A stretch of DNA of 64,000 nucleotides from Candidatus Cloacimonadales bacterium. Lineage in GTDB: Bacteria > Cloacimonadota > Cloacimonadia > Cloacimonadales > JAFGVF01. The notes under the pieces were generated by a model that was not told the DNA's origin, searched no databases, and saw nothing but the letters and a program-made list of their open reading frames with translations. The position numbers and the translations under genes were made by a program. Every line of letters begins with the position of its first letter. The first letter of the stretch is position 1. Shown piece after piece: positions 3,098-62,313 of the stretch. Location: positions 608,001 to 672,000 of the forward strand of contig CAXXOU010000001.1 in the NCBI GenBank assembly GCA_963677495.2, in the 5' to 3' direction.

Positions 3098-3663
3098 TTC
3101 TCTTTTACTACTCACCCGTTCCCCGTTAGCTTCCCGTTAGCTCCCCGTTAGAAACTCGTTACGGGGGATGGGAATTGGATTTGGAATAGATTGGAAGTTG
3201 ATGTAATCAGGGAATATAGTAAGAAAGTACATAATAATTTGAATTTGGGTTAGGGATGTCTGACTTCTTGCAGAGACAAACGAAGTTTTTTTAGATTGTT
3301 ATAAGAGCGTCATTCTGATTGTCTAGGACCAGAAGGTAGATATTGGATGATTAGTTACTAAGTGCATCTACACAGTTGATGCAGTCCAAATGGAAAGAAC
3401 CTTGAGGAAAACACCCCACCGTAAACGGCACCCCTCTGTAAGAGGGGAATCAATAAGAGCACCATTGAGAAGGTCTAAGGTCCATCCGCAAGGTGCTAAT
3501 GAACCTTCATTGCGCTGTCATAATAAATAGGCAAAACTAATAACTTTCCGGGTAGTCTCTTGGGGCTCTCCTATTAAAATCAATAAGAGACTACTAGGAA
3601 AATGACAGGATACAGATAGCTGAGGGATGTGAATTATGAGAGAGCAATGAGACTGCCAAGATA
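3098..3663 (+). repeat. Composite non-coding element, copy A (family 2)
   Basis: Collinear blocks match the reverse complement of 49340-49725; 11-bp-phased CCCGTT and GAT arrays at 3122-3202. Confidence 0.8.
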
Positions 3664-15183: not shown

Positions 15184-15385
15184 TGCTCCTACCTTTGTTA
15201 GGACTCAATATTTGGAAGCTTCAATCAGATTCGAAATATTGGGTCTTTATATTCTAAAAAAAGGTTAGGGACTAGATTTGAACATGTCAAGAACTAAATA
15301 CCATTAATAACAGCCTTCATGTAAAGTTAATGTACATATTACCTTTTCCTGCATCCAGCACTTAGCATTTAGCCAACTCTATACC

Positions 15386-15541
15386 TTCTCTTTATCTAAT
15401 TGCATCAAGAACATCTTTGCACCCTCAAATAAGTTATGCACATGATGTGGATAACTTTAGGGGTTCATAGGGAGGGTCTAGGGAGGCTAAAGGGTGGGAC
15501 AAGCGAGATTCAAGGTTTTTGATGAGATTAGATAAAGAGAA
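15386..15541 (+). repeat. Family 1 inverted-repeat-bounded element, copy 1 (DnaA-box pair + G-tract array)
   Basis: Arms TTCTCTTTATCTAATTGCATCAAGAAC / GTTTTTGATGAGATTAGATAAAGAGAA (24/27); near-identical core at 26902 and 62160. Confidence 0.92.
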
Positions 15542-15779: not shown

Positions 15780-17159
15780 CTACTTCATTAGGAGCATTCT
15801 TTGAGCCTGAGAAACTGTAGGTGTTGTAAGTCTATAGAAATAAACACCTGATGCTACAGGATTACCTTTTTGATCATTACCATTCCATACAACGTTATGA
15901 CTGCCTTCGTTAAGTTCTTCGGATACAAGTTTATTTATTGATTGCCCTCTCATATTGAAGATTTCAAGTGTTGCATTCTCTCTCTGCTTGAGTGAGAAAG
16001 AGATAGTAGTTGTAGGATTAAATGGGTTTGGATAGTTACTTAAATTAACAACATAAGCAGGGTTTACATCATCCGCATTAGGTGTATATAAACCTTGAAG
16101 AGCTATAGATTCTGTGTCTGAATCAGATCCAAGATCATTATAAACTTCTACTCTTAATACAAAATTATCATTATCATCCCATTCTTGCATTGAGATAGGA
16201 CCAACAATAGCATTATCTGAAGTTGATGAGCCTGTGAAGTGGAAAGGTCCACCTGAGCAAATCATTTCATCAGTAGCATTGTTATAAACGTTAATGTAGC
16301 AATCCTGTGCTCTAACTACATCTCTTAAGCTTGGATTCTGGGCATCAACATCAACCATTAAGTTAAGTGATTCATAATATCCATCTTCGTTAGCATCAAT
16401 TCCGTTACTTACGTATGAGTTATAGATACTTGGTGAACCATAAACATCCGGATTGATATAGTTTCTTGTAAGGTTTACATTATCAATATAAGCACCTTGA
16501 GCTGTATTAGAAACATCACTTGTGAAAGCAAAAGCAATCCACACATTGTTTAAACCTGTTACATCGCCAATTTCATATACGTCTGTTAGGTCGAATGAGT
16601 GTGATTCCCAGCCATTACTTTGACCATCATAATGAAGTCCCCAGTATGCCTGACCATCTGTTGATGCATACACTTTAAAGTAATCATAATTAGATTCTGT
16701 ATCGTACCAAACATTATAATTTAGCTCAGCATCACTACAATCAGCAAGACTGAAAGGTCCATAAACCATCCAAGTGTTCATATTGTTTTGATAACCGTTC
16801 TCAACATTATCAGCACCACCATCAGCACAATGGCCACTCCAGCTACCTTCGTAAGCCATGTCATTGCAATCAGACCAATATGCATCAACGTCTGTGTTAG
16901 AATAGCAATTCCAATCATTTGGCCATGCACCTTCAAAAGATTCTTCTTTTAAAGATATCCAATCTTTTGCTTGAGGTAAGCTATCATTGTTGATTTCTTT
17001 TCCGGTTTCAGTAGTACTGCTTACAAGTTGAAGCTGTGATTGATTAAAAACGCTTCCACCCTGAGCGACTTTACCTTTGTTGAATTGACCTTTAACAGGG
17101 TTTGCAATAAGCAACCCTAAGGATACTAAAATTGTAACTACAGATAACAATTTCTTCAT
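15780..17159 (-). CDS. Secreted protein (MAM/adhesin-like beta-sandwich) with FlgD/Por-type CTD
   Basis: Signal peptide, WYDTESNYDY, AYIDNV, NYPNPFNPTTTISF...SGVYFYRL...MLLMK. Confidence 0.88.
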   Translation of the reverse strand: MKKLLSVVTILVSLGLLIANPVKGQFNKGKVAQGGSVFNQSQLQLVSSTTETGKEINNDSLPQAKDWISLKEESFEGAWPNDWNCYSNTDVDAYWSDCNDMAYEGSWSGHCADGGADNVENGYQNNMNTWMVYGPFSLADCSDAELNYNVWYDTESNYDYFKVYASTDGQAYWGLHYDGQSNGWESHSFDLTDVYEIGDVTGLNNVWIAFAFTSDVSNTAQGAYIDNVNLTRNYINPDVYGSPSIYNSYVSNGIDANEDGYYESLNLMVDVDAQNPSLRDVVRAQDCYINVYNNATDEMICSGGPFHFTGSSTSDNAIVGPISMQEWDDNDNFVLRVEVYNDLGSDSDTESIALQGLYTPNADDVNPAYVVNLSNYPNPFNPTTTISFSLKQRENATLEIFNMRGQSINKLVSEELNEGSHNVVWNGNDQKGNPVASGVYFYRLTTPTVSQAQRMLLMK

Positions 17160-26901: not shown

Positions 26902-27056
26902 TTCTCTTTAGGATGTCGCATCAAGAACTTCTTTGCACCGTTAAGTAAGTTATGCACACGATGTGGATAACTTTAGGAGTTCATAGGGAGGGTCTAGGGA
27001 GGCTAAAGGGAGGGACTAGGGAAATTCTAGCGTTTTGATGGGATTAAGTAAAGAGA
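26902..27056 (+). repeat. Family 1 element, copy 2
   Basis: TTATGCACA 26950-26958, TGTGGATAA 26962-26970, same G-tract array. Confidence 0.92.
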
Positions 27057-38578: not shown

Positions 38579-38712
38579 TCTCAGCAGTAATTCTTTGTAA
38601 TTTGATAGCGATATCTTGGTAATAACTTAGAAATATCTTAGTAATTAGGCCAAGAATAGGCCAAGGGTTTGCCAAGGGTTTACCAAGTGTTGCTCAAGAA
38701 TTACTGCCGAGA
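38579..38712. repeat. Family 3 inverted-repeat-bounded element with inverted 11-bp arrays
   Basis: Arms TCTCAGCAGTAATTCTT / AAGAATTACTGCCGAGA (16/17); CTTRG at 38615/26/37; CAAG at 38651/62/73/84/95. Confidence 0.85.
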
Positions 38713-51023: not shown

Positions 51024-51048
51024 ACAATTCTCCTATTAAAGATTATTA

Positions 51049-51095
51049 CTAGGAGTCATCAGCATATAGCGGTTAAAGGCGAACTCCATCACCTG
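51049..51095 (-). promoter_or_regulatory. Fluoride (crcB) riboswitch
   Basis: Minus strand GGTGATGGAGTTCGCCtttAACCGCtatatGCTGATGACTCCTA matches the crcB consensus; ~25 nt before the antiporter ATG. Confidence 0.93.
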
Positions 51096-51148
51096 AAAGC
51101 AAGTTTTACTATTGATTTATGTATGTCAATAGGATATTCTTATAAAAG

Positions 51149-61969: not shown

Positions 61970-62159
61970 ATTATTCTTTAAATCATATATAGGCTGGTCA
62001 CTTATGTGTATCAGCCTTTTCCTTTGCTCCAATAATATCCTCCATTTCTACGATACTACTATAATACTATCATAAAGTCTATCGTGTTATTTTTCCATTT
62101 TGCATTTAGCATTTAGCATTTTGCATTTAGCAACTATCGTGCAACTTTATCTCTATCAC

Positions 62160-62313
62160 TTCTCTTTATCTAATCGCATCAAGAACCTCTTTGCACCGTT
62201 AAATAAGTTATGCACATGATGTGGATAACTTTAGGGGTTCATAGGGAGGGTCTAGGGAGGCTAAAGGGAGGGACAAGCGAGATTCTAGGTTTTTGAAGCG
62301 ATTAGGTTAAGGA
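62160..62313 (+). repeat. Family 1 element, copy 3
   Basis: TTATGCACA 62208-62216, TGTGGATAA 62220-62228, G-tract array; preceded by (GCATTTW)n 7-mers. Confidence 0.92.

Follow-up and report, generated by a model that had tools for sequence, protein, structure and literature searches.

What does a short dispersed repeat gain from carrying two predicted sites for the replication initiator of its host? The question is raised by three copies of a non-coding repeat in the DNA analyzed here, a window of 64,000 nucleotides that corresponds to C1:608001-672000 of the genome G000 (3.41-Mb assembly, 37% G+C, four contigs). In the middle of each copy lie two predicted DnaA boxes in inverted orientation, and these are followed by an array of 11-nt units. 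An earlier note on this DNA had taken the repeat for a spreading module that titrates or recycles DnaA. The features of the three copies, in window positions, are as follows.

15386-15541, + strand: copy 1 of family F1, with the bounds of the first reading
15386-15412, + strand: left arm of copy 1, an imperfect inverted repeat of 15515-15541; the predicted fold pairs both arms
15413-15433, + strand: left spacer of copy 1; its 3' end, AAG, is able to lengthen the palindrome stem
15434-15442, + strand: left DnaA box of copy 1, TTATGCACA, which fits TTATNCACA with N = G
15443-15445, + strand: gap or loop of copy 1, TGA, 3 nt; the length is fixed across all families, the sequence is free
15446-15454, + strand: right DnaA box of copy 1, TGTGGATAA, equal to the perfect box TTATCCACA on the - strand
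15455-15467, + strand: 13-nt spacer of copy 1, its 5' half able to pair with the start of unit 1 as hairpin P3
15468-15522, + strand: five 11-nt units of copy 1, TAGGGAGGGTC, TAGGGAGGCTA, AAGGGTGGGAC, AAGCGAGATTC and AAGGTTTTTGA; degeneracy rises toward the 3' end
15515-15541, + strand: right arm of copy 1, which pairs with the left arm in the predicted fold
26902-27056, + strand: copy 2 of F1, with the box pair at 26950-26970, the spacer at 26971-26983 and the units at 26984-27038
62160-62313, + strand: copy 3 of F1, with the box pair at 62208-62228, the spacer at 62229-62241 and the units at 62242-62296

All three copies lie on the same strand and at the positions that had been given for them. 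The 21-nt pattern TTATNCACANNNTGTGNATAA matched the window at 15434, 26950 and 62208 and was absent from all of 100 dinucleotide-preserving shuffles of the window. Among the three copies the boxes are invariant and the arms drift, as in the first description, and the pairing of 15386-15412 with 15515-15541 bears out the imperfect inverted arms of about 27 bp. Beyond the bounds of copy 1, a weaker inverted similarity continued for about 20 nt more on each side. Similarity between copies also ran past the arms, which had been noticed before: ATTGGRAGGTT is common to copies 1 and 2 on the right, and GCATTTAGC heptamers occur in copies 1 and 3 on the left. Tandem heptamers (GCATTTA/GCATTTT) adjoin several F1 copies, for example at 62100-62135 and 15355-15372 of the window, and on the right side of F1 copies they appear as the complement. 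A period-11 array was detected at 15469-15494 in copy 1 (TRF). The 11-bp phase between box and units was found again: counted from 15446, where the perfect box begins, the units starting at 15468 and 15479 are offset by +22 and +33. The phase was right, but the units are unlike DnaA boxes, and the array of low-affinity DnaA sites that had been read from it was not retained.

BLAST searches revealed 36 strong F1 copies in the genome. Thus the earlier count of three copies holds within the window and not genome-wide. As the copies are only 85-94% identical, their spread was not recent. A regular expression for the box pair matched 59 sites in G000, all of them, judged by eye, inside repeats of three families. 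A relaxed scan, in which one exact box and a partner with at most two mismatches were allowed, gave 77 sites, and 76 of these are elements. They belong to at least four sequence families, with about 36 copies of F1, 23-24 of F2, 6 of F3 and about 11 of F4/F4b, counts that vary with the thresholds chosen. The families are cross-detected by nhmmer and are thus related. Elements are about 125-210 bp long, and all 67 copies defined by hidden Markov models (HMM) were intergenic on a crude ORF map of our own.

A common plan was observed throughout. Family-specific inverted arms enclose about 25 AT-rich nucleotides, the box pair TTATNCACA-N3-TGTGNATAA, exactly 13 nt and five purine-rich units of 11 nt. 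In all 76 copies, gap (3 nt), spacer (13 nt) and units (11 nt) follow one another in an ungapped register; despite this common register, arms and units are unalignable between families. The unit sequences by family are TAGGGAGGGTC, ACGAGAGGGTC, CTTGGTGGCTC, TCAAGAGAGTA and GTAAGAGAGAA. Across families, the units have only G-W-G (positions 5-7) in common, 3 nt off the GTG of the box. F4 carries the terminal inverted repeats CCCATTCAAT...ATTGAATGGG, the arms of F1-F3 are imperfect and 27-45 nt long, and F1 has two unrelated right-end types. In being short, non-coding, multi-copy, intergenic and bounded by terminal inverted repeats, the elements correspond to miniature transposable elements (MITEs). 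They make up a superfamily, restricted to one genus, of small non-coding repeats that are non-autonomous, MITE-like or REP-like, and presumably mobile. This supports the former view of a spreading module that is not a clean MITE.

Conservation was evaluated on HMM-defined members, which had not been picked by the motif. At the 16 specified box positions, 5 of 576 cells were changed in F1 and 0 of 368 in F2. The N positions were changed in 4 of 72 cells (5.6%) in F1 and in 4 of 46 (8.7%) in F2. For the 3-nt gap the values were 6.5% and 14.5%, for the 13-nt spacer 5.8% and 16%, and for units 1-3 about 5% in either family. The two arms were changed in 33% and 40% of cells in F1 and in 19% and 14% in F2. 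The difference between the boxes and the remaining core was supported by a Fisher p of ~1e-15 in F1 and also in F2. A comparison of the 9-mers with their flanks was the trial that the earlier note had set for itself; the boxes are far better conserved, so that this trial does not refute it. Variants present in at least two copies affected 0 cells at box positions versus 439 across the remaining 98 columns of the core. Singletons, which serve as a proxy for change after insertion, numbered 5 in the boxes versus 11.9 expected (p = 0.015). Thus the boxes are needed above all for leaving descendants, with a mild signal of selection on resident copies. Some selection of this kind is hinted at by the singleton deficit and would be compatible with a host role. 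F4 and one further element have kept one perfect box, and the partner has decayed.

The host DnaA and its presumptive sites were compared with the box pair. The dnaA gene lies at C1:868295-869629, at the GC-skew minimum. The likely oriC is located just downstream (C1:869630-869912) and contains TTATCCACA, TGTGGATAA, TGTGTATAA and TTATGCACA together with (TAC)4. Its box cluster spans C1:869670-869780, and (TAC)4 corresponds to GTA/TAG trinucleotides on the other strand. The three box variants of the elements recur in this origin-like cluster beside dnaA. The DnaA protein aligns along its length with solved DnaA structures, and its domain IV is canonical and aligns with Bacillus DnaA, with DHTTVIHA present. 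Bac_DnaA_C identified only DnaA; there were two matches at E <= 1, the second with 12 bits and an internal stop. Judged from sequence, DnaA most probably binds the box pair. The elements contain 89 of the 154 perfect boxes of the genome.

Other arrangements of perfect boxes were observed as well. One box lies in the dnaA promoter (C1:868190). Five occur within 214 bp between two - strand genes at C1:766199-766412, at a distance of about 100 kb from dnaA, and are candidates for a single-locus DnaA-box cluster or a DnaA-regulated promoter. A four-copy repeat with two opposed perfect boxes 19 nt apart is found at C4:1492840-1492876, C4:1496977-1497013, C2:339378 and C4:270458, and two of its copies adjoin IS21 copies.

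Besides the palindrome, the core contains a second hairpin, P3, in which the spacer's initial 5-7 nt find their complement in the spacer end and the start of unit 1. In a set of 59 different sequences drawn from four genomes, 78% of P3 cells were paired versus 41-56% in slid controls. Individual positions show several types of pair; one of them, for example, is GC in 22 cases, TA in 19 and AT in 9. The non-Watson-Crick pairs comprised 51 G-T pairs on the top strand and 5 A-C pairs; two fixed T positions account for 46 of the 51 G-T pairs. P3 is strong in the other families and weak in F1, where it is not predicted as DNA. For the F1 palindrome, the predicted DNA hairpin has -8.2 kcal/mol in the top strand, against -6.0 kcal/mol in the bottom strand (z ~ -5). 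The palindrome stem is invariant in sequence, without covariation, and contains a fixed G-G mismatch in F1.

The arms behave differently. Their sequences are confined to elements, those of F1 to F1 copies, and neither separate hairpin repeats nor IS ends made of them were found outside elements in the genome. No IS with matching ends was detected in the genome. Pairing of a copy's own arms was about equal to that of arms swapped between copies (10.5 vs 9.6 in F1, 13.2 vs 12.3 in F2). No copy-specific compensatory change was seen in the arms, and wobble pairs showed no strand bias (98 vs 81 in F1, 55 vs 95 in F2). Because of this confinement, the swap-equal pairing, the unbiased wobble and the two right ends of F1, we conclude that the arms behave as decaying family-level terminal repeats and not as a stem selected in each copy.

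The distribution of the box-pair pattern is narrow. It was found in 5 of 232 genomes of the phylum, with 58 matches in G000, 53 in G002, 2 in G003, 1 in G001 and 1 in G147; outside the four congeners, 227 of 228 phylum genomes were without it. Completeness is 83% for G002, 72% for G003 and 98% for G001, which is one contig. G002 possesses at least five families of its own, with the loops AAT, ACT or AAA and with A, G or C at N. Its units differ, yet the 3/13/11 geometry and P3 are the same. The single G001 copy is F3-like and precedes a gene for a PKD-domain protein; a position beside a recombinase gene was ruled out by the identity of this downstream gene. In metagenome contigs, the full plan was present at 5 of 117 extended-palindrome loci, all of G002-type families, and in viral contigs at 0 of 54 loci. 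In other phyla, an inverted pair with a 3-bp gap occurs singly among the matches listed. Further boxes were located within 250 bp at 66 of the 102 listed loci with such a pair, as expected for origins or dnaA promoters, and box arrays in 11-bp phase adjoin the pair at few loci (L179, L186, L228 and L274).

Arrays with a period of 11 nt also occur in the genome apart from box pairs. At a strict threshold 83 were counted, and at least 77 of them lie beside no catalogued box pair, so that DnaA is no requirement of the class of 11-nt arrays as such. The boxless families have core words such as CCACGG, CCAAG, CCCGAG, CACTG and CGTTAG. In those read by eye, the arms and a P3-like complement are kept and another sequence occupies the place of the box pair. 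The box-pair group is a branch of this 11-nt-phased class, the branch in which the hairpin position is fixed in sequence. Two arrays without a box pair were observed in the window, one of the CCCGTTAG type at about 3118-3161 and one of the GCCAAG type at about 38643-38692.

The elements are unevenly placed along the chromosome. Their density is 30/Mb around the origin and declines to about 10/Mb around the terminus. With the contig order inferred from GC skew, 8 elements were counted within 400 kb of the terminus versus 17.8 expected (p = 0.006), and on contig C4 alone 8 of 26 elements were near the terminus versus 13.8 expected (p = 0.029). With respect to genes, 19 of the 24 F2 copies precede a gene in the same orientation. 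F1 showed neither a gene-orientation bias (17 of 34) nor a replication-strand bias (19 vs 15). Genes that flank copies encode proteins with type IX secretion tails. An enrichment beside secreted-protein genes was tried and rejected, as 22 of 76 elements have such a neighbor versus 25% of all long intergenic gaps.

Several observations concern the surroundings of the elements and the window. At 15835-16044 of the window, within the ORF 15780-17159 (- strand), contig depth is raised about 10-fold, with loose ends; this segment encodes a type IX secretion C-terminal domain that is common to 187 of 2454 ORFs on our own map. A cyanobacterial origin, to which the heptamers might have pointed, was rejected, as a search of the genome gave no photosynthetic reaction-centre gene (Photo_RC) and flanking genes carry the type IX secretion tails. 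A fluoride riboswitch (crcB motif) was detected on the - strand at 51043-51102 of the window, with 53 bits against a gathering score of 34. The right flanks of two F4 copies, at C1:479545 and C3:269000, both continue with GGRGTTCGAACC, which is like a tRNA T-arm and may reflect insertion beside tRNA genes.

We also searched for traces of movement and for a mobilizing enzyme. At the fuzzy ends of the elements no direct repeat could be read as a target-site duplication, in agreement with the first reading. No empty sites were found in the congeners, whose genes are only about 76% identical and whose flanks are non-syntenic. Contigs from four runs of a single sample are interrupted at the repeats, and none of them skips an element. 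Since neither a target-site duplication nor an empty site was seen, mobility is inferred only. For no family did we find an autonomous IS, a transposase gene or a longer element that shares its ends, and F4 has no long partner. Y1 (IS200/RAYT-type) genes gave 14 matches, 13 of them over the cut-off. An element lies within about 1 kb of 1 of the 14 (a weak F4-type match of 21 bits at about 0.5 kb), which is about chance level. The C-terminal extensions of three Y1 proteins (226, 224 and 191 aa) had no Pfam match at E <= 1, and two other long Y1 proteins have little or no such extension. A fusion of a Y1 transposase to a DnaA-like domain was considered and is present in none of the Y1 genes of the genome. 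The idea that Y1 counts track element counts in the congeners was likewise dropped; there is no relation, and G001 has as many Y1 matches as G000. RepB-type (Rep_OBD) and IS91-type Y2 genes were absent from the genome at E <= 0.1. In one F1 copy, an IS21-family element (C3:196462-198955) is inserted in the palindrome and splits the copy, and a duplication of about 7 nt is suggested by eye. The IS21 family has 17 near-identical IstB-type matches in the genome.

We favor, tentatively and with somewhat less than even confidence, a superfamily in which the box pair is an obligatory cis site, host DnaA is a cofactor of propagation and titration is a by-product. New copies would arise only from lineages that retain the box pair. 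Host DnaA would bind the pair as duplex or as top-strand hairpin, and the bound DnaA might then act as a cofactor for propagation of the element. Precedents are the DnaA site in the ends of Tn5/IS50 and priming that depends on DnaA at a hairpin with a DnaA box. About 150 box-like sites would also raise the capacity of the cell to titrate DnaA. Titration as a side effect is therefore likely, and this part of the earlier proposal may stand. The datA/DARS-like host role that went with it would make the copies host-adaptive, acting jointly in titration or nucleotide switching, as datA, DARS and the Bacillus clusters do, or coupling promoters to the cell cycle. Such a role would fit the large share of perfect boxes within elements, the deficit of box singletons, the drop in density toward the terminus and the placement of F2 upstream of co-oriented genes, and the DARS core likewise has two opposed boxes (PMC6868365, in the part available). 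However, that core has a 5-bp gap and a third box, in contrast to the 3-bp gap and two boxes found here, and the DARS geometry is thus absent. Arms, P3 and units are conserved as well, though titration does not need them. Families and copy numbers vary between species, F1 has no gene-orientation bias, and the gradient from origin to terminus could reflect a higher target dosage near the origin. Conservation among propagating lineages, more than in resident copies, together with the single copy in the complete congener G001, favors a selfish cis site over a host-adaptive module. With the DARS geometry absent, conservation at the level of lineages, a single-copy congener and at least 77 boxless arrays, the host-adaptive role is unproven, and we consider it rather unlikely. 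A bolder proposal is that selfish elements hijack the initiator: in single-stranded DNA, DnaA at the top-strand hairpin with its DnaA box, beside the second hairpin and the phased array, would load helicase and primase in the manner of the ABC primosome or nucleate an oligomer, and the element would be copied or moved in step with initiation. We hold this to be possible but doubtful.

Other readings were weighed as well. The palindrome may be read by another protein, a mobilizing enzyme or a dimeric helix-turn-helix factor, its likeness to DnaA boxes being secondary and DnaA having no part in it. A 9+3+9 palindrome is a typical dimer operator, and the boxless arrays read by eye have another sequence at that place. 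Some REP-type Y1 transposases elsewhere carry a C-terminus like DnaA domain IV (available part of PMC6006769), so that box-like sites can belong to a transposase. In this genome, however, Bac_DnaA_C was confined to DnaA and the three Y1 extensions resembled no Pfam family; the boxes vary exactly at the position that the DnaA consensus leaves free, and the elements with a single perfect box fit a monomeric reader of 9-mers better than a strict dimer. A reader other than DnaA is conceivable, with the chances clearly against it. A structured RNA or transcribed RNA element would use the stem closed by the arms, the palindrome and P3 hairpins and the purine units as a platform for a protein or the ribosome. 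Copy 1 does fold better as RNA on the + strand (-56.9 kcal/mol, z -6.2) than on the - strand (-43.2 kcal/mol, z -4.9), P3 covaries, and its wobble pairs are mostly G-T on the top strand. Against this, almost all of these G-T pairs are due to the two fixed T positions, the palindrome stem does not covary and has its G-G mismatch, arm pairing survives swapping without wobble bias, and F1 orientation is random relative to genes. A search of Rfam gave nothing at gathering score and chance-level matches only up to E 10. An RNA function is therefore improbable. The least probable of these readings, and a very improbable one, is a miniature origin of replication or nicking, served by an HUH-type or iteron-binding initiator and either pMV158-like or with boxes and iterons as in theta plasmids. 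In pMV158, a hairpin with the nick site is accompanied by three tandem 11-bp repeats that bind RepB (PMC1851628, in the part available); here, a hairpin-forming palindrome precedes five 11-nt direct repeats with an AT-rich stretch alongside, and the genome has 13 Y1 HUH genes. Yet Rep_OBD and IS91-type Y2 genes are missing at the threshold given above, a nick site like that of pMV158 would not fit into a loop of 3 nt, at least 10 families would each require a unit-reading protein of their own, and F1 shows no replication-strand bias.

If DnaA binds the elements, two questions become testable, namely by what means an element that is non-autonomous puts the initiator to use in its spread, and how far a several-fold change in DnaA-titrating sites can be tolerated or exploited by the cell. 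Natural contrasts are at hand in sister species that have 1, at least 53 and 76 copies. If the initiator is indeed hijacked, some species of a single genus would have had their strong DnaA sites more than doubled by element bursts, and the initiator-titration model of replication control would thereby have been put to a natural experiment. One recognizable protein site would also give a first foothold in a larger unexplained class of 11-bp-phased repeats.

Parts of the arrangement have counterparts in known systems. The double-strand origin of pMV158 resembles it in combining a hairpin with tandem 11-bp direct repeats, as far as the available part of PMC1851628 describes it. In contrast to pMV158, the genome has no RepB-type gene, and the elements have no nick-site loop and five units, not three. 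The ABC primosome assembles at a DnaA-box hairpin in single-stranded DNA, the A-site (Masai et al. 1990, as cited in the available part of PMC6127211). The likeness would be the DnaA box in a hairpin stem, which here is the predicted top-strand DNA hairpin of the palindrome. The A-site, however, is a plasmid priming signal with one box, and the elements are known from sequence, their single-stranded stage being hypothetical. BOX, Correia and the BrickBuilt MITE of Porphyromonas gingivalis (PMC4596501) are, like the elements described here, short, non-coding, multi-copy and strictly intergenic. They also share inverted arms at the termini, a modular construction that includes a tandem array inside, and expansions specific to lineages. 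Unlike for MITEs, searches here revealed neither a cognate IS sharing the ends nor a target-site duplication, and the families have in common not their ends but an internal module, which includes a predicted host-initiator site. The REP, REPIN and BIME repeats with their RAYT (TnpA-REP) enzymes, including TIRYT, are similar in that they are dispersed and hairpin-forming, and 13 Y1 genes occur in this genome. BIMEs carry sites for host factors (IHF, gyrase). A RAYT subclass with a Bac_DnaA_C-like C-terminus exists (available part of PMC6006769). Unlike REP/RAYT systems, the elements lie near 1 of 14 Y1 genes, without a GTAG-type tag and without a DnaA-like domain on a Y1 protein.

Dispersed bacterial repeats with host-factor sites are thus already known, as is Tn5 with one DnaA box. 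In the literature, which was surveyed in outline, we found no report of DnaA boxes in MITEs or dispersed repeats, or of a repeat superfamily in which an inverted consensus pair is the most conserved, lineage-selected module. The outside and mosaic ends of Tn5/IS50 hold one DnaA site (Yin and Reznikoff 1987, as cited in the available part of PMC3347997). Tn5 is a mobile element with a DnaA box that the host initiator can occupy, by which transposition is coupled or modulated; this is the likeness to the elements. Its box is single, lies in a 19-bp end and is read together with the transposon's own transposase, whereas the elements, which are non-autonomous, have an inverted pair at their center. 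Like the elements, the datA locus and DARS1/DARS2 of E. coli and the Bacillus clusters have boxes outside the origin; in those systems the boxes bind DnaA and titrate or remodel it. In the part of PMC6868365 available, the DARS core has three boxes, of which I and II are opposed with a 5-bp gap and one has the full consensus. Those systems occupy single conserved loci, where 3-5 boxes with a 5-bp gap are accompanied by IHF/Fis sites; in this genome, in contrast, about 76 dispersed copies have a 3-bp gap and no third box, and their number ranges from 1 to 76 among four congeners.
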